This document shows positions 1,705 to 62,006 of a stretch of 64,000 nt of DNA, one piece after another. Both the position numbers and the translations under genes were made by a program. Within the stretch, counting starts at the first letter, position 1. Every line of letters begins with the position of its first letter. This stretch comes from a virus, in the IMG/VR virus record IMGVR_UViG_3300042507_004023. The stretch is one strand, 5' to 3'. A model generated the notes under the pieces. That model worked only from the letters and a program-made list of their open reading frames with translations, searched no databases and was not told the DNA's origin.

Positions 1705-4071
1705 ATGACCACAACTACTCTCTCTCGCACCGTTCTCGACTCCAAGGCCGTTCTCGCTCGCATGATGGCCACGGAAAACCTCACCGTGGAGCATGTTCCC
1801 TCGGCTCAGACCGCCTACTTCGACTCCACGAGCCGCACTCTCGTGTTTCCGTGTTGGAAGTTCATGAGCAACGATCTTTACGATATGCTCGCGGGTCACG
1901 AAACGGGTCACGCTCTGTTCACTCCTGCGGGCACTCAGGTGCTTGTGGATGCGATTCGCAAGGTGGATCCTCGCAACGGCTCGACCGCTGCGAAGACCTT
2001 TCTCAACATTGTGGAGGATGCGCGAATTGAGCGGTTGATGAAGGCTCGCCTGCCGGGTCTGCGTCGTTCCTTCTTCAACGCCTACAAGGAGTTGATGACG
2101 CACCCGCTCTTCGTGGAGCAGTTCAAGCATGTGGACAAGATGCGTCTGATCGACCGCATCAACATGCACTACAAGTTTGGTGCGTGGTGCAAGGTTCCGT
2201 TCACCGCTGAGGAACTTCCGCTCGTGCAGGAAGTGGAGCGAACCAAGACTTTCGATGATGTGATCGACCTGAGCCGTCGCATTTGGGAGATGCAGCGCGA
2301 GCAGGAGAACTCGGAGCCGCAGGAGCAGCAGGAGCCCCAGCAGAGTGCCGGTCAGGGCGACGGCGAGGGTCAGCAGGGCGAGCCGCAGGAACAGCAGCAG
2401 CCCGGTAGCAGCACCCGCGAGCCGAAGGGTCAGCGAGATGTGGATACCGGCGAGCAGGGCGAGAGCAAGCAGGACAACTCGGATGCCAAGGGCGACGAGC
2501 AGAGCAAGTCCGACAAGCCGCAGAGCGGTAACGCGGCGGCTTCGGGTAACGAGTCTGCGAAGAGCGAGGGCGAGGCTCAGAAGACTGAGCGTGATCCGAC
2601 TGCGGCTCAGACCGACAACTTCATGCAGTCGGTGAGCAACGAGTTCCGCGACACCGCAGCGACCTACTACACGCCGCTCACTCTGCCGCGTTTCGATTCG
2701 CGGCGTGGCGTGATTGATTTCCGCGAGCATGTGCTGCCTGCCTTGACCAAGTATTTCACCAATTGCAATGGTGCTAGCCTGCTCGCTGAGTGGGAGAGCA
2801 AGAGCCGTCGTGATGTCAGCATCATGCAGCAGGAGTTCCTGCGTCGTATGGCGGCGGATGCTGCTAGCCGCACCTCGGTTGCGGATACCGGCACGATTGA
2901 TGTGAATCGTCTGTGGAGTTACAAGATTTCCGATGACATCTTCCTTCAGAACGCCACGGTGCGTAACGGTCAGAGTCACGGTATTGTGGTGTTCGTGGAC
3001 TTCTCTGGCAGCATGAGTGCCATCATGTCGGAAACCATTCGTCAGATGCTGATGCTTGCGGCTTGGTGTCGTCGTAGCAACATTCCGTGCGATGTTTACG
3101 GTTTCTCGGACGGCATCGGTCACAAGTGGCAGGGCTGTGTGAACGGTCAGGTCTCTTCGCCGTGGGTGCATCGTGACAGCGAAACCAATCGTGCCACCCT
3201 TGATGAGGGCATGCGTCTTGTTCACCTGATCTCCACCAAGGGTCTCAGCGACCGCGATTGGCGCACCACGGCGGGCGGTCTGCTTGCCGTGTGGGGTGCG
3301 CGTCACGATTACACCGCCATGAGCAACAGCAATGGTCAGTGGGGCAGCGACGAGCAGTATCGTCAGACGCAGCGGTTGTTTGCTTTGAACAGCACTCCCA
3401 CCACGGCGGCTACGGCTGCGGCTCTTGATCTGGTTGAGCAGTTCAAGCGTCAGAACGGACTTCAGATTGTTCACTTCGTCACCCTCACGGACGGCGAGGC
3501 GAGCGATTATGTTCACGCCTCAGGTCGCCCGACTGGTCAGAAGACTTCGTGGGGCGGCGATCATTATGATGCGCCTGTTACTCACGCCAAGGGTTCCGAC
3601 TATGCGAGCGGCTACGAGTTGCGAGATCCTGTGACGGGTGCTACCGCTCGTTGTCAGAGTCGCAGCCCGAGCAGCGGTCTGAAGGCTCTGCTCAGTCTTC
3701 TGAGCAAGCGTGTGACGGGTCTGCGTTCGGTGGGTATCTCCATCACGCCGAAGCGCGATTTCAAGTCGCTGCTGCGTTACTCGGGTCTGAAGGCGGAACA
3801 GCAGGATAAGTGCTTGGAGCAGAGCCGTCGTGACGGCTTCCTGTGCGCTGAGGGCGTTCACGGTTACACCGCTTGGTTCGCTGTGCCGAATCCTCGTGTG
3901 GACGAGACCGACCCGTTCGATTCGCTGATTGCAGGTGATGCCAGCAAGGCGAACCTGAAGAAGGCGTTTGAGGCTAGCCTTGAGAAGGCGGGCAACAATC
4001 GTCTGCTCTGCACCCGCCTCGTGGATCTGATTGCGAAGGCGGACAGCAAGAAGGCGAAGGTGACGGCGTGA
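1705..4071 (+). CDS. CobT-like protein: N-terminal HExxH metallopeptidase-like domain, Q/E/S-rich linker, C-terminal von Willebrand factor A domain (MoxR ATPase partner)
   Basis: LAGHETGHAL; NIVEDARIE; acidic low-complexity linker; MIDAS motif VDFSGSM and TLTDG; architecture typical of T4-like phage cobT-like genes. Confidence 0.85.
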   Translation: MTTTTLSRTVLDSKAVLARMMATENLTVEHVPSAQTAYFDSTSRTLVFPCWKFMSNDLYDMLAGHETGHALFTPAGTQVLVDAIRKVDPRNGSTAAKTFLNIVEDARIERLMKARLPGLRRSFFNAYKELMTHPLFVEQFKHVDKMRLIDRINMHYKFGAWCKVPFTAEELPLVQEVERTKTFDDVIDLSRRIWEMQREQENSEPQEQQEPQQSAGQGDGEGQQGEPQEQQQPGSSTREPKGQRDVDTGEQGESKQDNSDAKGDEQSKSDKPQSGNAAASGNESAKSEGEAQKTERDPTAAQTDNFMQSVSNEFRDTAATYYTPLTLPRFDSRRGVIDFREHVLPALTKYFTNCNGASLLAEWESKSRRDVSIMQQEFLRRMAADAASRTSVADTGTIDVNRLWSYKISDDIFLQNATVRNGQSHGIVVFVDFSGSMSAIMSETIRQMLMLAAWCRRSNIPCDVYGFSDGIGHKWQGCVNGQVSSPWVHRDSETNRATLDEGMRLVHLISTKGLSDRDWRTTAGGLLAVWGARHDYTAMSNSNGQWGSDEQYRQTQRLFALNSTPTTAATAAALDLVEQFKRQNGLQIVHFVTLTDGEASDYVHASGRPTGQKTSWGGDHYDAPVTHAKGSDYASGYELRDPVTGATARCQSRSPSSGLKALLSLLSKRVTGLRSVGISITPKRDFKSLLRYSGLKAEQQDKCLEQSRRDGFLCAEGVHGYTAWFAVPNPRVDETDPFDSLIAGDASKANLKKAFEASLEKAGNNRLLCTRLVDLIAKADSKKAKVTA

Positions 4072-25468: not shown

Positions 25469-25714
25469 ATGAGCCAATCTGAAGACAACACTTTTAATAA
25501 AACTGCAATTGCAGCAGCAGCATCCACTCTGACGCTTGTGGTTCTTCGTCTTGACGGGCAACTTGATTGGTCATGGAGATGGACTCTTTCACCACTTTGG
25601 ATTCCTTTAGCATTTTCATTTGCACACGCTTTTTTTCGTGGTATACTTGCAGGACTGAACAAGATCGAGTATAATAAGCGTAACGAGAACAACAATGACT
25701 ACACTAACTCGTAA
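25469..25714 (+). CDS. small membrane protein (LDWSWRWTLSPLWIP type)
   Basis: Two hydrophobic segments. Confidence 0.65.
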   Translation: MSQSEDNTFNKTAIAAAASTLTLVVLRLDGQLDWSWRWTLSPLWIPLAFSFAHAFFRGILAGLNKIEYNKRNENNNDYTNS

Positions 25715-25961
25715 TGATTACTTAACCATGCTTCGTGATAACATTTGTGTTGTTACTTTTACGAAGCGTGACGGCACAGAGCGTATTATGCGATGCACCT
25801 TGAAGAGTGATTTGCTTCCTGCTCCTGTCGCCACAAAGCCAACCACAGAAGTTAAGGTTCGCAAGACTAATCCGGATACGCTCGCGGTTTGGGATTTGGA
25901 TAAGAGTGCGTGGCGAGGATTTTCAGTAGAACAAATCAAAGAAATAAAACAGGAATCTTAA
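25695..25961 (+). CDS. WYL-like / SH3-fold small protein (DUF2693 type)
   Basis: VVTFTKRDGTERIMRCTL...VWDLDKSAWRGF. Confidence 0.8.
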   Translation: MTTLTRNDYLTMLRDNICVVTFTKRDGTERIMRCTLKSDLLPAPVATKPTTEVKVRKTNPDTLAVWDLDKSAWRGFSVEQIKEIKQES

Positions 25962-25969
25962 AAAACTAA

Positions 25970-26044
25970 GTTCCTGTAGCACAGCCTGGATAGTGCAGAT
26001 GCCTTCTAAGCATCAGGTCATAGGTTCGAATCCTATCAGGAACG
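25970..26044 (+). tRNA. tRNA-Arg(UCU)
   Basis: Cloverleaf GTTCCTG/CAGGAAC; anticodon arm GATGC-CTTCTAA-GCATC; TTCGAAT T-loop. Confidence 0.92.
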
Positions 26045-26059
26045 CTTACAAGTTAATAT

Positions 26060-26319
26060 GCTTCGGTAACTCAATTGGTAGAGTAGCCGACTTCAATAGG
26101 AGCAGTTTTGTAGGAATACAAAACATGAAACTCGTCAAATTCGGTGGACGGTTGAAAGACCCAACGCCGAGCCAAGCGCAGAAATGCGAAGGTGTAGAGA
26201 CTTGACGGCGGGCATCCAGAACGGATGAAGGCAAAGTCCAGACCACGAACCGTAAGGGCGGCGTAAGCCGAAGTGGTAAGTTAATCGGTAGGTTGTGGGT
26301 TCGAGTCCCACCCGGAGCA
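26060..26319 (+). tRNA. tRNA-Lys(UUU) interrupted by a group I intron between positions 34 and 35
   Basis: Exon 1 26060-26093 (GCTTCGG...GCCGA-CTT), exon 2 26281-26319 (TTAA-TCGGT...CCGGAGC-A); joined loop CTTTTAA; A73. Confidence 0.85.
26094..26280 (+). ncRNA. group I self-splicing intron (IC3-like), 187 nt
   Basis: Core elements GTCAAATTCGG, CAACGCCGAGCCAAGC, GAAGGTGTAGAGACTTGACGG, GAAGGCAAAGTCCA closely resemble the Azoarcus tRNA intron; P1 exon CUU pairs with IGS GAG (26100-26102) giving the U-G splice-site pair; ends in G. Confidence 0.9.
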
Positions 26320-26357
26320 CTAAATACACTCACCTTCTCTTGAAAGGAGAATACATT

Positions 26358-26711
26358 ATGGATACTTATCTTTACGGATTGCTTGGTCTCTCACTCGCGG
26401 CTAACGCATTCTCTGCTATCAGCACTTTGGTTGCAAACTCAAAGAAGCGCGACGAGGAAAATCAGAGAACTATTAATTCAATCTATGATGAGTTGAATCG
26501 TAAGATTGATAACGCTGCTAAACTGTCCAATCACAATATTAGAGAAGAGATTCGTAATCTTAGTCTTGAGATTGGTGATGCTCGCACGGCTATCAACCAG
26601 GTCGAGGACAGTGTTTGTGATCGTCTTTGCGAAGTTGAATATCAGATCGAACGCCTGAACGAAAAGGCGGAACCAGAACTCTGCACTGCTTCAAAGAAGA
26701 AGCGCAGATAA
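26358..26711 (+). CDS. hypothetical protein, N-terminal TM plus coiled coil
   Basis: SD AAGGAG; CTAAATA at 26320-26326; ATG 26358. Confidence 0.7.
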   Translation: MDTYLYGLLGLSLAANAFSAISTLVANSKKRDEENQRTINSIYDELNRKIDNAAKLSNHNIREEIRNLSLEIGDARTAINQVEDSVCDRLCEVEYQIERLNEKAEPELCTASKKKRR

Positions 26712-27783: not shown

Positions 27784-27868
27784 GGGCAGATGGCAGAGTG
27801 GTCTAATGCAGCGGTTTACTAAACCGCCGAGGTGAATGCCTCCGAGGGTTCGAATCCTTCTCTGCCCG
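27784..27868 (+). tRNA. tRNA-Ser(ACU), unusual A34 anticodon
   Basis: GCGGT-TTACTAA-ACCGC; long variable arm; acceptor GGGCAGA/TCTGCCC-G identical to the Ser(UGA) gene. Confidence 0.85.
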
Positions 27869-27872
27869 CTTT

Positions 27873-28777: not shown

Positions 28778-29767
28778 ATGAAGACAGCGATGATAACTGG
28801 TGTTAACGGTCAGGATGGTTCTTACCTTGCTGACCTTTTGATTTCCAAGGGTTACTATGTGGTGGGTCTGAAGCGTAGAACTTCGTCCATCAATACTGGA
28901 CGAGTGGATCACATCTACGACAATCCAATCTCAAATTCACAATTCAAGATGCACTACTACGATCTGTCGGACGGAGCGGCAATCGTGCATCTGTTGGATA
29001 AGTATCAGCCAAACGAATTCTACAATATTGCTGCTCAGTCGCATGTTGCAGTTTCCTTTGATGTTCCTGAATATACTTCTGATGGTATCGCTCAAGGAAC
29101 TCTCAAGATTCTTGAAGCCATCCGAACTGTAAGTCCGGCTACTCGTTACTATCAGGCTTCTTCATCGGAAATGTTTGGAGATAGCGATGATTACGATCAG
29201 CACGGTTACACGGAAACTAGCCGAATGATGCCAGTATCTCCGTATGCGGTGGCTAAACTTCATGCTCATCACATGACGCGAGTGTATCGTAATGCTTATG
29301 AACTTCACGCTTCATCCGGCATTCTGTTTAATCACGAAAGTCCTCGTCGTGGCGAAACCTTTGTGACTCGCAAGATTACTATGGCAGCAGCCAAGATTAA
29401 AGCAGGATTGCAAAACAAACTGTTCCTTGGAAATCTTGACTCTAAGCGAGATTGGGGTTTTGCTGGCGATTATGTGGAAGCCATGTGGTTGATGCTTCAG
29501 CAAAACACTCCAGACGATTATGTGATTGCCACCAACCGAACTCATACTGTTCGTGAATTCTTGGAAGTAGTATTTGACTACGCGGGTCTTGGTGATTACA
29601 ATAAGTATGTGGAAATTGATCCAAGACTTTTCCGACCAAACGAGGTTCCCTACCTGCTAGGAAATCCTGCTAAGGCGAAGCGAGTGTTGGGTTGGCAACC
29701 AAAGTATGATATGCCTGCTCTTGCTCGTATGATGTTTGATTCGGATTACGCCACCTACAAGGAGTGA
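28778..29767 (+). CDS. gmd: GDP-mannose 4,6-dehydratase
   Basis: [12 protein letters not shown]; [10 protein letters not shown]; SPYAVAKL; [17 protein letters not shown]; [10 protein letters not shown]. Confidence 0.96.
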
Positions 29768-29771
29768 TAGT

Positions 29772-30824
29772 ATGAAGATTGAAGATGATGTGAAACTTGA
29801 CTTTGCAGATGTGTTGATTCGCCCAAAGCGTAGCAACCTTGACAGCAGAAATAAAGTTGATTTGCTTCGTCGTTTTAATTTTCGTTTGGCAGCAGGTAAA
29901 GAAACGGTTTGGGAAGGCGTTCCCGTCATGGCATCAAACATGGACACCATCGGAACTTTTTCAATGGCAGAAGCCTTGGAAAAGCACAATGCCTTGTGTG
30001 CTGTTCACAAGTATTACACCGTAGACGATTGGCGTAGAGAAACAAGCGGGTGGTTTGCTCGTCACCCTAATTGTGGACTAGTTTACACAATGGGTATGGG
30101 TAGCGATAGCAACAATTTTGCTGAACTTCAGAAAGCACAAGAGGTGATGCGTAACAGTCCTGCTATCAAGTTTATCTGTGTGGATGTGGCTAACGGCTAT
30201 ACTGAAAAGTTTGTGCGATATGTGCAAACCATTCGTGAAGCATTCCCCAACCATATCTTGATTGCAGGCAATGTGGTAACACGAGAAATGACTGAAGCCT
30301 TAATTCTAGCAGGGGCGAACATTGTGAAGATTGGAATTGGGCCAGGATCGGTTTGCACCACACGAAAGGTTGCAGGCGTGGGCTACCCGCAACTATCGTG
30401 CATCATGGAGTGTGCTGATGCCGCACACGGACTAGGTGGCTATGTGCTTTCGGACGGTGGGTGCACCTGCCCCGGTGATGTAGCCAAGGCATTCGGTGCA
30501 GGCGCAGACTTTGTTATGATTGGTGGCATGTTTGCAGGAACTGATGAAGCCGCAGGTGAGGAAACCGAAGACGGCAAAGAATTCTACGGCATGAGTTCCG
30601 CTACTGCAATGGAAAAGTATTCAGGAGGAGTTGCACAATATCGTGCCGCAGAAGGTAAGCGGGTTCATGTGAAGCCTGTTGGTCCTGTGGATGGCGTGAT
30701 GCAACAAATTCTTGGTGGAGTTCGTTCGGCTTGCACTTATGTGGGGGCTGCTCGCTTGAAGGACTTGCCAAAATGCACAACATTTGTCCGAGTTAACCGT
30801 CAACTCAATACCATTTTCACCTAA
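29772..30824 (+). CDS. guaC: GMP reductase
   Basis: [21 protein letters not shown]; [10 protein letters not shown]; YRAAEGK; [12 protein letters not shown]. Confidence 0.93.
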
Positions 30825-31012: not shown

Positions 31013-31270
31013 ATGACTGAACCTTTTGACCGTGTTAAAGAATTTTTGAATCTTCCGCTTAATCAGATGAATTCTGCTGAGATGGAGTGGAGATTGAATG
31101 CCATGTCTCCTGAAGATGCGAAGCGATTGTTTGAAGCAATGGAGAATCCTCCTACGCCAAGTCTTCGTAACGCATTCACTCGTTGGAAGGCATGGCGTAA
31201 GCGGTGGGGAACTGCAAACGAAGCACTTGACCGCCTTGCAAAACTTGACGAAGAGTTGGGACTACAATGA
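31013..31270 (+). CDS. small hypothetical protein (DUF1778-like FEAMENPPTPS..LR segment)
   Basis: ATG 31013 after GGAG; stop overlaps the purA start. Confidence 0.6.
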   Translation: MTEPFDRVKEFLNLPLNQMNSAEMEWRLNAMSPEDAKRLFEAMENPPTPSLRNAFTRWKAWRKRWGTANEALDRLAKLDEELGLQ

Positions 31271-32265
31271 TTGAAACCGTTGATGTGGTATACGGTCTTG
31301 CGTGGGGCGATGAAGGCAAGGGCAAGATTGCCGCTGCTCTTGCTCCCAAATACGATTGGGTGTGCCGATGGAACGGCGGGCCAAACGCAGGACACACCGT
31401 GTGGGTAAACGGCAAGAAGCACAAGACCCATATTATTCCTTCAGGCATTTTTGCAGGCAAGCGGTGCTTGATTGGGCCAGGATGTGTAATCAACACCGAC
31501 AAGTTTTTTGAAGAGATTCGGTATCTGCGTAGCGAAGGGTTTGACACTTCGCTTGTCAAGATTTCTCCTGCTGCTCATATCATTACACAAGCACACATTG
31601 ATTACGATAAGCGGAACTTGGTGCATCTTGGAACCACAGGTCAAGGAATTGCTCCGTGCTATTCCGACAAGATGATTCGTGGTGGTAAGCGAGCCGCCGA
31701 GTATTTCATTAGTGAATGGCTTTGGGACGGCAAACTAGACGGACGGGTGCTGTGCGAAGGCGCACAAAGCGTTTGGTTAGACATTGACCACGGCGATTAT
31801 CCGTATGTCACTTCTAGCACAACACTTCCGTATGGTGCATGTTCTATTGGTTTCTCGCCGCATAAGATTGGAAGACTGATTGGTGTGGCTAAGATTTACG
31901 ATACCAAGAGCGGAGTTGACCCACTATTCCCGACTTCTCTATGGGATGACCAAGAACTTGATGCAGTTCTTCAAGCAGGTGGTGAGTTTGGAACCACAAC
32001 TGGCAGAAAGCGTTTGGTAAATTGGTTGAATCTTGACAAACTGATTCAATCCATGAAACTGTCGGGTTGCACGGAACTCATTATCAACAAATGTGATGTG
32101 CTAGAAAAAGTGGGAGTTTTTAAAGTTTACCACAAGGGTTCACTACACAATTTTAAAGATTTAGGCGAACTGAAGGTTTTTATAATTGATGCTATTGGCG
32201 ATGCAGGAAACTGCGGTCTACCTGTTCACCAAATCACCTTCTCAAGCCACCAGGAGACGATATGA
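31267..32265 (+). CDS. purA: adenylosuccinate synthetase (short form)
   Basis: GDEGKGK; GGPNAGHT; GTTGQGIAP; EGAQ; YPYVTSS; GTTTGRKR. Confidence 0.93.
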   Translation: MIETVDVVYGLAWGDEGKGKIAAALAPKYDWVCRWNGGPNAGHTVWVNGKKHKTHIIPSGIFAGKRCLIGPGCVINTDKFFEEIRYLRSEGFDTSLVKISPAAHIITQAHIDYDKRNLVHLGTTGQGIAPCYSDKMIRGGKRAAEYFISEWLWDGKLDGRVLCEGAQSVWLDIDHGDYPYVTSSTTLPYGACSIGFSPHKIGRLIGVAKIYDTKSGVDPLFPTSLWDDQELDAVLQAGGEFGTTTGRKRLVNWLNLDKLIQSMKLSGCTELIINKCDVLEKVGVFKVYHKGSLHNFKDLGELKVFIIDAIGDAGNCGLPVHQITFSSHQETI

Positions 32266-32470: not shown

Positions 32471-32656
32471 ATGATGGAGATTGAAGACTTCGCAGCGCAT
32501 GCGAATATCGGAGAACTAGCCCGCAAAACTGCTCGTATTGTTGAGTGGGAATTGGAAGGCAAGTTCACCGCATCGCAAGCGTTTGAAGAGATACGAAAAG
32601 TTTACTTGTCACTAAAACAATCTACAGAAGAAATCAGGGGAGCCACAAGTGTCTGA
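32471..32656 (+). CDS. small hypothetical protein
   Basis: ORF with GGAG upstream. Confidence 0.55.
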   Translation: MMEIEDFAAHANIGELARKTARIVEWELEGKFTASQAFEEIRKVYLSLKQSTEEIRGATSV

Positions 32657-33284
32657 ACAAATTGAAACCTATCGAAAAGAATTGATTACAGAAATCTCAC
32701 TTGCTCGCGTGTTCTCACATGTTGAGAAGCGACCGTTTGCTTTGCTTACCGCGTTTCGTGGCAGCAATTCGCTGTCGGTGAATCGTGGACTCAACAAGAA
32801 GTTGGAGAATGATATTCGTGCAGCAGGTTTTGGTTTTGAGAAAGTTGTTGGCACTTACGAAGAAGACCTTGGTGACGGCAAGAAGCGTCGTGTTACTGAA
32901 GAGTCTTTTATGATTATCGGAGATGATGATAGTGCTGCGAAGGTTGGAGCCATCAAAGGCTTTGCCAAGAAGATGGGCGCAAAGTATGAGCAGGATGCTA
33001 TCTTTTTCAAGTCGCCTGCCAATCCACAAGGATTAGTCATCGGAACCAAGGCAGAAGCATGGCCTGGTCTAGGTAAGGAAGAACCTGTTGGTGAGTTCAA
33101 GCCTAACCGACTTAGCGGCATCTATACTGCACTCAAGACCAAGAACAAGGAGCCAATTAGTGGTTTCAAGTTTGAGGAATTCCATCATCCAATGACTGTA
33201 ACTGAAATTTGGGTGAAGCATCTTATGAAGAAGAAAGGTTTAGATAATGATAGACAAAATGAGAGAACTTCGTCGTCGTCGTAA
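32649..33284 (+). CDS. hypothetical phage protein (LSR..H...LTAFRG...EESF...YEQDAI type)
   Basis: ORF track. Confidence 0.7.
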   Translation: MSEQIETYRKELITEISLARVFSHVEKRPFALLTAFRGSNSLSVNRGLNKKLENDIRAAGFGFEKVVGTYEEDLGDGKKRRVTEESFMIIGDDDSAAKVGAIKGFAKKMGAKYEQDAIFFKSPANPQGLVIGTKAEAWPGLGKEEPVGEFKPNRLSGIYTALKTKNKEPISGFKFEEFHHPMTVTEIWVKHLMKKKGLDNDRQNERTSSSS

Positions 33285-33416: not shown

Positions 33417-33488
33417 TGGCTCGTAGCACAACGGTAGTGCGATCCGCTGTTAACGGATAGGTTGCTGGTTCGAATCCAGCCGAGCCAG
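33417..33488 (+). tRNA. tRNA-Asn(GUU)
   Basis: ATCCG-CTGTTAA-CGGAT; U1-A72; G73. Confidence 0.92.
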
Positions 33489-41453: not shown

Positions 41454-41784
41454 GTTCCTTGATGCAATACGCCAAGTAGAAAGTCAAGGAAACGATAAGG
41501 CTGTGGGAGACTACGGCAATGCTATCGGTAGTTATCAGGTTTGGCGGGACTACTGGCAAGATGCGGTAGACTATGACAAAACTATCGGAGGTAAGTATGA
41601 GAACTGCTTTAATCGAAATTATGCGGAGCGTGTTGTTGTGGCTTATCTCAACAGGTATGCTCCTGAAGGCGCATCTTGGGAAACCTTAGCCCGTATTCAC
41701 AATGGTGGGCCTAAAGGTTACAAGATTAAAGCCACGGAAAAGTATTGGAAAAAGGTGAAGCGTGAACTCGAAAAGCAAAAGTGA
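41278..41784 (+). CDS. lysozyme-like (i-type/destabilase or SLT) muramidase with predicted signal peptide
   Basis: AIRQVES...GDYGNAIGSYQVWRDYW...ARIHNGGP; start uncertain; overlaps the upstream gene. Confidence 0.8.
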   Translation: MTRKPNLLPCSLLMLSLLMLFTPTAMAAAKPQSSKTTPQDLYKPITFPLRGKTPQETRKFLDAIRQVESQGNDKAVGDYGNAIGSYQVWRDYWQDAVDYDKTIGGKYENCFNRNYAERVVVAYLNRYAPEGASWETLARIHNGGPKGYKIKATEKYWKKVKRELEKQK

Positions 41785-42697
41785 ATCGGTAGACATTATT
41801 GAGCGAACCAAGTCTTACGACAAAGAACATTGTTGGCAGTATGATATACGCTTAAACAATCTTCAACAAGATTTGGCGGAAGCCGACCTGTCTAAAGAAC
41901 AAGCAGCCGAACTGCGTGTTTCCGATTTCATTTTCAAACCGCTTACAACGGAAGCCGAGAAGCGGGAAGCCACAGAATTCATCAAGCGTCACGAATGGCT
42001 TGGCAATCTTTCTCAATACACCACGCATTGGTTTGGGGCGTATTATCATGCTCCAAATCAAGGATTGATAGGCAAAGATATCATGGCGGGAGTTATCCTG
42101 ATGAATTTGCCGAACGCTTTCTCAAAACTGCTTGGCGAAAATACCAAAGAGATTGAACGATTGGTTAGCCGTGGTGCTTGCGTATCATGGAGTCCAAAGT
42201 GTTTGGCTAGTTCTTTTCTGATGTGGAGTATTAATTGGATGGTTAAGAATACGCAGTATCGGTTGTTTACTGCTTACTCTGACCCGACTGCGAAAGAGTT
42301 GGGAACCATCTATCAGGCTTGTAACTTCTATTACCTTGGTCAAGATTCAGGAACCACAACTAGGTATATCAATCCGTATACCGGCAAAGTAGTGAGCGAC
42401 AGATTCTTTCGTGTGCGTAGTGCATACAAGAAGTATGCGAAAGAGTTGGGCATTTCTTGGGAAAAGGATTGGAACAACGACCAAAAGATACTTTGGGAAA
42501 ATATCCCTGATGAGATTGAGCAGCGGTTGCGAGAGCATTCCAAGGAAAAGCAGAAGACATCAATCAAAGTGGAAATGCCTAGCAAACATAAGTATGCGTT
42601 TGTGTTGGGCAGAACTAAAGCAGAAACCAAGAAACTACGGCGAGAGTTTGAGGAGCGTAATCCTCCGAAGCCGTATCCAAAGCAACGAGGCAAATAA
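41762..42697 (+). CDS. Mom-like DNA adenine-modification (GNAT-fold) protein
   Basis: FIKRHEWLG...RLVSRG...AYSDP...GTIYQACNFYYLG, as in the Mu Mom family; start uncertain. Confidence 0.75.
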   Translation: MNSKSKSESVDIIERTKSYDKEHCWQYDIRLNNLQQDLAEADLSKEQAAELRVSDFIFKPLTTEAEKREATEFIKRHEWLGNLSQYTTHWFGAYYHAPNQGLIGKDIMAGVILMNLPNAFSKLLGENTKEIERLVSRGACVSWSPKCLASSFLMWSINWMVKNTQYRLFTAYSDPTAKELGTIYQACNFYYLGQDSGTTTRYINPYTGKVVSDRFFRVRSAYKKYAKELGISWEKDWNNDQKILWENIPDEIEQRLREHSKEKQKTSIKVEMPSKHKYAFVLGRTKAETKKLRREFEERNPPKPYPKQRGK

Positions 42698-43098
42698 TGA
42701 GTGAAATTAAACCATTCGGATATTCTTACTATTTGGACATGTATAATTGTCGCGTCGGTGCAGCCGATGATTTGGAGTTGCACTATCGTTTTCTTGAGCG
42801 AGTTGTAGACAAGATTGGCATGACACGCATGAGTCAGCCTGTAGTAATGCACGGCCCAACCAATCACGGCACGGAACTATATCCCGACAAGGCAGGAGTG
42901 AGCGGTTGGGTTCCACTCATTGAGAGTGGTATTCAAATTCACTCAATGGAGCCAAAGCGATTCATCACGCTTGATGTTTATTCGTGCAACAAGTTTGACA
43001 AGGATATCATTTTGAATTATGCTAGAGAATGCTTTGGCTTTGCGTGGCACGAAGAGCAGTTCTTTGTGCGTGGAACCAAATATGGAGATATCGCGTGA
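42697..43098 (+). CDS. S-adenosylmethionine decarboxylase proenzyme-like
   Basis: GVSGWVPLIESGIQIHS; ITLDVYSCNKFD; ES autocleavage site. Confidence 0.85.
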   Translation: MSEIKPFGYSYYLDMYNCRVGAADDLELHYRFLERVVDKIGMTRMSQPVVMHGPTNHGTELYPDKAGVSGWVPLIESGIQIHSMEPKRFITLDVYSCNKFDKDIILNYARECFGFAWHEEQFFVRGTKYGDIA

Positions 43099-44042
43099 AC
43101 ACACATCGCATAATTCTTGGTGATTGTATTGCAGGCATGAAGACGCTGCCAGATGGCTGCATTCACACTTGCGTAACTTCCCCACCGTATTTCGGCTTGC
43201 GTTCCTACGAGGGTGGAGATGAGGAAATCGGTCAGGAAGAAACTGTAGAAGAGTATGTGCAGAAGATGGTGGAGGTGTTCCGCGAGGTGCGTCGTATTCT
43301 TCGTGATGACGGAACACTTTGGTTGAATCTTGGCGATTCTTACATGGCAGCAAAGAATTGTGCTCCTCCACCACAAACCATCGGTGGTCAGCGTGGTATG
43401 CCAACCGACTTTGTGCCAGGCAATCGTAAAGACCAAAAGGGATTGAAGACGAAAGACCTGATTGGAATTCCGTGGCGAGTAGCGTTTGCCCTGCAAGCCG
43501 ATGGTTGGTGGCTGCGTCAAGATATTGTTTGGCACAAGCCTAATCCTATGCCTGAGAGTGTTACCGACCGATGCACTCGTGCTCACGAATACATTTTCAT
43601 GCTCTCCAAGAAATCGCACTACTATTATGACCATGAAGCCATCAAGGAGACCGCTGTTAGTGCTCCGCATGCTCCTGGCAACAAGAATCGCACACAACCT
43701 GAAGATAAGGGAGCCCGTGACCCTGCTTTAGAGCCTGAGCGATTGTGGGGTGCAGACGGCAAAAAGAACAAGCGTTCCGTATGGACTGTGAACACCAAGG
43801 GATACAAGGGCGCGCACTTTGCGGTGTATCCCAAGGAACTAATTACTCCATGTGTTCTTGCAGGTTCGCCTGTTGGTGGAACGGTATTTGATCCGTTCAC
43901 AGGCAGCGGCACAACCGCTGTGGTGGCGTTAAACAACGGTAGAAATTATATTGGCACAGAACTGAACCCCGAGTATGTTAAGATTGCGGAAGACCGAATT
44001 CGTGAAGAAGTGGCAAACTCATTACAAGGATTTTTAGCATGA
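43095..44042 (+). CDS. DNA methyltransferase, beta class (N4-C/N6-A)
   Basis: GDC; TSPPY; WLRQDIVWHKPNPMP; HFAVYP; DPFTGSGTT; GTG start 43095. Confidence 0.93.
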   Translation: MNTHRIILGDCIAGMKTLPDGCIHTCVTSPPYFGLRSYEGGDEEIGQEETVEEYVQKMVEVFREVRRILRDDGTLWLNLGDSYMAAKNCAPPPQTIGGQRGMPTDFVPGNRKDQKGLKTKDLIGIPWRVAFALQADGWWLRQDIVWHKPNPMPESVTDRCTRAHEYIFMLSKKSHYYYDHEAIKETAVSAPHAPGNKNRTQPEDKGARDPALEPERLWGADGKKNKRSVWTVNTKGYKGAHFAVYPKELITPCVLAGSPVGGTVFDPFTGSGTTAVVALNNGRNYIGTELNPEYVKIAEDRIREEVANSLQGFLA

Positions 44043-61906: not shown

Positions 61907-61980
61907 GGGAGTGGGGGGTCTTTGGTTGGCCCAGATTGGTTTATACCCGATTGGAACAGGTTCGAATCCTGGCACTCCTA
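61907..61980 (+). tRNA. tRNA-Ile(UAU), atypical
   Basis: GGGAGTG/CACTCCT-A; ATTGG-TTTATAC-CCGAT; T-loop TTCGAAT; G at position 8 and one T-stem mismatch. Confidence 0.7.
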
Positions 61981-62006
61981 CTAGATACTAAAACAAGGAG
62001 AATATA

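Follow-up and report, generated by a model that had tools for sequence, protein, structure and literature searches.

Subgroup IC3 comprises group I introns of bacterial tRNA genes, and Williams 2020 (bioRxiv 10.1101/2020.01.27.920355) distinguishes 21 types of bacterial tRNA introns, including Lys.3Ug and Lys.4Ug. For phages, a 2014 review (Hausner et al. 2014, PMC3984707) placed all phage introns then known in protein genes, and Devoto et al. 2019 (PMC6784885) stated that phage tRNA introns had not been reported before. The latter study described "enigmatic" introns in tRNA genes of Lak megaphages, which are polymorphic in presence and absence and unclassified. We found no paper describing a group I intron in a phage tRNA gene in the literature searched. 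A similar described case of intron mobility in a phage is the psbA intron of cyanophage S-PM2 with the endonuclease F-CphI (Zeng et al. 2009 and Bonocora & Shub 2009, via the review PMC3984707), in which an ORF-less intron, a free-standing endonuclease gene adjoining the target gene in relatives, three allele states and mosaic flanks are found together. The concept behind such systems, in which an ORF-less intron is paired with a free-standing endonuclease, has been published as collaborative homing (Hausner et al. 2014, PMC3984707).

Here we analyzed a 64,000-nt stretch of viral DNA, the IMG/VR virus record IMGVR_UViG_3300042507_004023, which is called the window below. Its replication module is of the T4 type, with a sliding clamp, a clamp loader and a DnaB-like helicase identified by PHROG scans, and the window is therefore assigned to an uncultured T4-like phage; its DNA polymerase is ~50% identical to cyanomyovirus polymerases. 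On the plus strand at 26060-26319, the window carries a tRNA-Lys(UUU) gene with a 187-nt intron inserted in its anticodon, between U34 and U35 (Table 1). As in the S-PM2 system, the intron has no ORF, relatives have a free-standing putative endonuclease gene beside the split gene, the locus exists in three allele states and the flanks are mosaic. The two systems differ in that the target here is a tRNA gene rather than a protein gene, the window itself lacks the endonuclease gene and the candidate endonuclease, an HNH protein, is only a putative one. The Lak megaphage introns share with our locus the residence in phage tRNA genes and the polymorphism, whereas the intron in the window is clearly a group I ribozyme by its sequence and predicted fold. 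What is new at this locus is the combination of three allele states, an optional HNH partner and a mosaic sequence; the kind of element is itself known.

In its default mode ARAGORN called 17 tRNAs in the window and missed the split gene, and an Rfam search with gathering thresholds gave no match at the locus. When ARAGORN was run in intron mode and the junction was chosen by the rule of a U before the 5' splice site (U at −1) and a G at the end of the intron (omega-G), it returned tRNA-Lys(ttt) with the loop CTTTTAA and a 187-nt intron. This is the sole tRNA-Lys visible to ARAGORN in the 64-kb window. In the joined exons, the anticodon stem strand TCGGT of the 3' exon pairs with GCCGA of the 5' exon and closes the loop CUUUUAA, which is that of tRNA-Lys(UUU). 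The remainder of the 3' exon consists of a 5-nt variable loop (AGGTT), a T arm (GTGGG/CCCAC), the acceptor strand CCGGAGC and A73.

The boundaries of the intron were fixed by comparison with the nearest relative among the records compared, an 86.7-kb IMG/VR contig (G001), in which ARAGORN found an uninterrupted tRNA-Lys(ttt) at the same place, flanked by tRNA-Arg(tct) and tRNA-Gln in the same order as in the window. When G001 was compared by BLAST with positions 25950-26093 and 26281-26400 of the window, the two aligned pieces abutted exactly at 26093|26281. Because the intron-less allele gives exactly this junction, the intron is defined to the base. In the alignment with the exons of the window, the D arm and the anticodon arm of G001 are identical and its loop reads CTTTTAA, while the acceptor and T stems differ through compensatory changes. 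The junction thus lies after the third base of the anticodon loop, with U at −1 and omega-G, as in the type Lys.3Ug. The initial annotation of this DNA, made from the sequence alone, had proposed a tRNA-Lys(UUU) split at 34/35 by a 187-nt group I intron whose removal restores the loop CU-UUU-AA, and both the Rfam group I match described below and the G001 allele agree with it.

Table 1 Features of the split tRNA-Lys(UUU) locus and of the predicted intron fold (positions in the window).
Feature	Position	Strand	Description
tRNA-Arg(UCU)	25970..26045	+	directly 5' of the split tRNA-Lys gene; syntenic in relatives
Candidate recombinant patch, L010 type	26046..26319	+	~275 bp: spacer, both exons and intron; backbone closest to intron-less G001
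5' exon of tRNA-Lys(UUU)	26060..26093	+	acceptor GCTTCGG, D arm, anticodon stem GCCGA, loop C32 U33 U34
Group I (IC3-type) intron	26094..26280	+	187 nt, ORF-less; ends in AAG; omega-G = 26280
P1	26091-26094 with 26099-26102	+	CUUC/GGAG, loop AAUA
P2 hairpin	26105..26124	+	8 bp, GGAA loop; 5/8 pairs change on both sides among relatives
P3	26131-26136 with 26207-26212	+	encloses P4, P5, P6/P6a and the 5' strand of P7
P4	26141-26146 with 26165-26170	+	100% of cells paired
P5	26150-26161	+	4 bp, GAAA loop; 92.9% of cells paired
P6/P6a	26171-26193	+	P6a 4 bp; 100% of cells paired
P7	26197, 26199-26202 with 26235-26239	+	bulged A; 5' strand region 26197-26202; forms the P3/P7 pseudoknot
P8	26213-26227	+	5 bp, 5-nt loop; followed by J8/7
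P9	26242-26246 with 26273-26277	+	ACCAC/GUGGU; encloses two small GNRA hairpins, P9a (2 bp) and P9b
3' exon of tRNA-Lys(UUU)	26281..26319	+	U35 U36 A37 A38, anticodon stem TCGGT
Spacer after the tRNA	26320..26357	+	CTAAATA late-promoter-like motif; HNH cassette absent here

By its sequence and predicted fold, the intron is a genuine member of the group I ribozyme family. The Rfam model of the group I intron (RF00028) matched positions 26084-26262 over its whole length with 44.9 bits, a score that lies below the curated gathering cut-off of 50 bits and was seen with E-value thresholds (E = 2.6e-10 in a local search and 3.3e-8 in a search of the whole window). No other group I intron was found in the window at E <= 0.1. 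P1 is formed by C26091-G26102, a U-A pair, the wobble U26093.G26100 at the 5' splice site and C26094-G26099; these pairs and the intron end at G26280 are read in the sequence just as the initial annotation gave them. Wherever a related allele spans the splice sites, it retains both the U.G wobble and omega-G.

To quantify the conservation of the fold, we aligned seven alleles and wrote the P3/P7 pseudoknot separately. Over the 61 pairs of P1 to P9, including the pseudoknot, 99% of the cells were paired and 11 pairs had changed on both sides, whereas in a control with the 3' partners slid by 1-3 columns the paired fraction fell to 28-41%. P3, P4, P6, P6a and P7 were paired in 100% of the cells, and compensatory changes were seen in P3, P5 and P6a. 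The minimum free energy fold of the precursor contained the cloverleaf together with P1, P2, P4, P5, P6/P6a, P8 and P9 (z = −3.3). P10 with the 3' exon is weak, with one clear pair only; Zaug et al. are said to have found in 1993 that in tRNA introns the anticodon stem aligns the exons. The core sequence, the site in the anticodon loop and the lack of a P5abc extension place the intron, as judged from its sequence, in subgroup IC3.

The core of the intron had been likened to that of the Azoarcus IC3 intron, and this likeness was borne out by near-identical blocks shared with Azoarcus-type and tRNA-Leu introns. Since the exact Azoarcus P2 sequence was absent among the betaproteobacterial loci examined, a relative from Azonexus stood in for it. 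This Azoarcus-type Ile2 intron (207 nt) is also an ORF-less IC3 intron of the anticodon loop with GNRA loops on P2 and P9, and the segments J3/4-P4, P4'-P6 (a 16-base identical run), J6/7-P7-P3' and J8/7-P7' are near-identical to ours; it differs in residing in another tRNA, at a site after loop base 5. The P9 of our intron is built like that of the Leu-type introns and unlike that of the Azoarcus-type Ile2 introns. A phage tRNA-Leu intron of 205 nt likewise has near-identical core blocks and is longer than ours in P5, P6a and P8. The tRNA-Leu(UAA) introns of cyanobacteria and plastids (Leu.3Ug) sit at the same loop position with the same CUU/GAG P1, a pairing that the initial annotation had noted for the cyanobacterial ones, and share the core; their host is Leu instead of Lys and they are usually 196-260 nt long.

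The seeds in Williams 2020 allowed a closer placement. The IC3 seeds given there have the same 3' end and P9 layout as our intron and a near-identical core, and the P1 of the Arg.3Ug seed is identical to ours. Lys.3Ug as listed agrees with the window in the tRNA (Lys UUU), the 34/35 position, the U before the 5' splice site, the terminal G and the pairing CUUC.../...GGAG. Its seed Mle24, from a bacterial genome, differs in having a longer core, another P3/P4 sequence and a large P5, and the core of the phage intron is closer to the Leu.3Ug, Arg.3Ug and Thr.3Ug seeds than to Mle24. The initial annotation named no Lys(UUU) site among the classic bacterial tRNA introns; the Lys 34/35 site is not new, because Lys.3Ug is listed for bacteria in the preprint.

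The description of the intron as ultra-compact holds in part. With 187 nt it is indeed shorter than the 205-nt Azoarcus intron, and it is 18-20 nt shorter than the Azoarcus-type Ile2 introns through smaller P5, P6a and P8 helices. Its size is not exceptional, however, as its relatives measure 182-196 nt; the Azoarcus-type introns in betaproteobacteria range from 188 to 218 nt in the intron-mode lengths of ARAGORN. The literature searched contained nothing specific on the smallest natural group I intron.

When IMG/VR was scanned with the 5' exon, nine contigs were found, of which four carried the intron and five lacked it, demonstrating that the intron is polymorphic at this locus. In addition, the initial annotation had named a survey of phage metagenomes as a check, and this survey yielded further Lys 34/35 introns: 8-9 distinct relatives, 182-196 nt long, reside in other uncultured phage contigs, and words of the intron core also matched diverged tRNA-Lys(UUU) genes interrupted at this position. 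Of 15 matches in a scan of metagenomes, 11 were Lys 34/35 introns and the other four (L133, L135, L139 and L144) interrupt Lys at 35/36. In these "Lys.4Ug" introns the guide GGAG is changed to GGAA, matching the shift, as if the insertion site had slid by one base and the guide had changed accordingly.

The intron family extends well beyond tRNA-Lys. A less specific 20-mer of the core matched more than 119 IMG/VR contigs and lay inside a split tRNA call in 79 of 126 segments, most of which resolve to a junction with U at −1 and omega-G. Leu(UAA) is the commonest host, followed by Arg(UCU), and a few copies reside in Thr(UGU), Ser(UGA), Met or Ile2(CAU) and Lys(UUU). The family is found in every U34 tRNA with CUU ahead of the splice site, namely Leu, Arg, Thr, Ser and Lys. 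The tRNA-Ser(UGA) genes of two contigs (L051, core at 3576-3595, and L118) are split at 34/35 by the same family, and the published genome of an uncultured 735-kb phage (LR756501) has an unannotated tRNA-Leu(UAA) with a 205-nt group I intron at 34/35 (L002 1420-1710). Further copies of the family, ~186-191 nt long, split capsid genes of pelagiphage-type podoviruses. Two of these are published marine podoviruses. In Pelagibacter phage HTVC120P (L001 1474-1664) the capsid-gene intron was recognized by BLAST similarity of the core and by the split CDS and gave no Rfam match at E <= 0.01, and Chosvirus KM23C739 (L003 1447-1627 and 2156-2336) has two capsid-gene group I matches of 77-78 bits in Rfam; the GenBank records of both phages show split capsid CDSs and no intron feature. 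A 24-mer spanning the P7-P3'-P8 core of our intron was matched exactly by none of 185,579 species genomes of bacteria and archaea, and accordingly no bacterial donor was identified.

In agreement with the initial annotation, no homing endonuclease ORF was found inside the intron (26094-26280). Ten related loci (9 distinct contigs) have a conserved gene of ~120 aa that begins 40-55 nt 3' of the intron-bearing tRNA-Lys and gives a weak HNH match (PF01844, 18-19 bits, under the Pfam cut-off of 21.4). A free-standing gene of this kind beside the target, as collaborative homing expects, is thus present in these 10 related loci and absent from the window, where the HNH query gave no match and no endonuclease gene was found in or beside the intron. 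Compared with the window, the closest intron-bearing relative (L010) has a clean ~409-bp cassette with the free-standing HNH gene directly after the tRNA, and this cassette carries its own CTAAATA motif; the start of the HNH gene in other relatives likewise lies 53-55 nt behind the tRNA. The locus therefore occurs in three states: with neither element, with the intron only (the window), and with the intron and an adjacent free-standing HNH gene. The gene accompanied 9 of 15 intron-bearing loci and none of the four intron-less loci with enough flank, counts that come from related, non-independent contigs; six intron-bearing loci, including the window, lack it. Because these contigs are few and related, the association of the HNH gene with the intron is suggestive only. 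A distant homologue of the HNH gene (L051 2675-2986) was seen ~600 nt downstream of the split tRNA-Ser(UGA), which suggests that the pairing of intron and HNH gene may extend beyond tRNA-Lys.

Comparison of three sequences (the window, G001 and L010) revealed a mosaic. The flanks of the window are 95-96% identical to the intron-less G001 and only 71-76% identical to L010, whereas the patch spanning the locus is 97-100% identical to L010, with 14/14 identical positions in the spacer, 39/39 in the 3' exon and 181/187 (97%) in the intron. This is the pattern expected of recombinational transfer with short co-converted flanks and fits such an event, in which the L010-type sequence would have been the donor side and the G001-type backbone the recipient.

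Taken together, we think it quite likely that the element, an ORF-less IC3 group I intron, is a selfish passenger that arrived by DNA recombination within a system of collaborative homing. From its anatomy, the transcript would fold to bring the CUU at the end of the exon into pairing with the GGAG of the intron in P1, including the U.G wobble. A free guanosine bound in P7 would attack after U26093, the terminal G26280 would then occupy the same pocket in P7, and the exons, kept together by the anticodon stem, would be joined to give the loop CUUUUAA. At the DNA level, the intron would have entered the genome when recombination with a co-infecting relative replaced ~275 bp. The putative HNH enzyme may cut intron-less tRNA-Lys genes, and the intron would shield its own genome by splitting the target; repair would then copy the intron with or without the HNH gene. 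Because the window has no HNH gene, we infer homing from the relatives. The intron itself is most likely a selfish and roughly neutral passenger and no regulator. It is possible, though more doubtful, that the intron-only allele serves as a defence against the HNH enzymes of co-infecting relatives and that the triad of alleles is the first case of collaborative homing on a tRNA gene.

The initial annotation had suggested a physiological role, in which the intron masks the anticodon loop and the precursor forms a timed or protected reservoir of tRNA-Lys(UUU) that escapes PrrC-type nucleases. tRNA-Lys(UUU) is the classic substrate of PrrC, the break in the loop falls at the wobble base, the spliced CUUUUAA is the unmodified canonical target sequence and no second tRNA-Lys was seen in the window, all of which would suit such a role. 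Beyond the identity of the tRNA, however, nothing supports it, and we consider it extremely unlikely: close relatives have an intron-less gene at the same place, and thus the intron is dispensable; the spliced product is again an ordinary target of the nuclease; and anticodon-nuclease or repair genes were not found near the locus. Moreover, since the same intron family sits in Leu(UAA), Arg(UCU), Thr(UGU) and Ser(UGA) genes with CUU, the site is explained by the P1 pairing and not by the identity of the tRNA, and the distribution of the intron fits a selfish mobile element. A bolder variant of our reading would keep part of the idea, with slow or regulated splicing that also times the tRNA-Lys supply or shields it from host anticodon nucleases. 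That the intron no longer splices and the gene is a dead tRNA-Lys pseudogene seems very unlikely, even though the Rfam score is under the cut-off, several peripheral helices are very short (P5 and P6a of 4 bp, P8 of 5 bp, P9a of 2 bp) and the partner HNH gene is missing in the window. In the core no pair is broken, and where the intron departs from its relatives the changes are compensatory. No allele has lost the U.G wobble or omega-G. The exons form a flawless cloverleaf whose acceptor and T stems have also changed in a compensatory way, and the intron agrees with that of L010 in 97% of its positions.

Another possibility is that the intron spreads at the RNA level, by reverse splicing into CUU loops followed by reverse transcription and recombination, with no endonuclease involved. 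The P1 CUUC/GGAG recurs in Arg.3Ug, related introns occupy the same loop position in Leu, Arg, Thr, Ser and Lys genes, and the one-base shift of Lys.4Ug goes with the guide change from GGAG to GGAA, and this route could account for the first colonization of the Lys site. We regard it as unlikely, because the mosaic in the window takes in the 14-nt spacer outside the tRNA, which fits DNA recombination instead, and the HNH cassette linked to the intron in relatives would allow spread by way of DNA. The mosaic could also have arisen if the whole tRNA gene was exchanged in an event unconnected with any endonuclease. A different junction that would yield a different tRNA, for example Asn(GUU), has a negligible probability. 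The sequence G-U-U-A-A does follow A26279, but for this junction the intron would have to end in A and splicing would have to occur after U33; the loop of the intron-less orthologue is CTTTTAA, and a separate tRNA-Asn(GUU) is present at 33417-33488. The initial annotation had rejected the Asn reading as well.

Our locus and the dozens of look-alikes indicate that self-splicing introns are common in the tRNA genes of uncultured aquatic phages. Because standard tRNA finders and Rfam cut-offs miss split genes, phage tRNA sets are under-counted; with default tools, the window appears to have no tRNA-Lys at all. With its three states, the locus is a compact and testable example of a tRNA gene on which a putative endonuclease and an intron lacking an ORF converge. 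If the tentative defensive role of the intron-only allele is true, this allele would confer immunity in phage-phage conflict against the HNH enzymes of co-infecting relatives. In addition, the introns of 182-196 nt are pared-down natural forms of the Azoarcus ribozyme and could be of use in work on ribozyme structure.

Several other features were observed in the window and in related contigs. ARAGORN called a tRNA-Ser with the anticodon ACT at 27784-27869 (+), and also in L010 at 371-456 (−), in which the A at the wobble position is unusual for Ser. A tRNA-Ile with the anticodon TAT at 61907-61981 (+) scored 29.8 bits, against the Rfam tRNA cut-off of 29. Two related phage contigs (L012 10619-11046 and L015 3360-3753, both on the minus strand) have permuted two-piece tmRNA genes with the tag ANRMAMAA, as called by ARAGORN. 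At 31267-32265 (+), the window encodes a 332-aa homologue of adenylosuccinate synthetase (PF00709, 279 bits; PHROG 1211), adjoined by an IMPDH/GMP-reductase-like gene at 29736-30824 (+). PurZ is the enzyme that makes 2-aminoadenine (Z) DNA. The homologue resembles PurZ in its size and phage setting, and if it is PurZ it would be unusual in a T4-like phage. A small ORF with a WYL_2 domain immediately precedes the tRNA cluster (25695-25961, +), a gene resembling S-adenosylmethionine lyase is found at 32649-33284 (+), and a Mom-like DNA modification gene adjoins a DNA methyltransferase gene at 41762-44042 (+). These genes are probably involved in anti-restriction or DNA modification.
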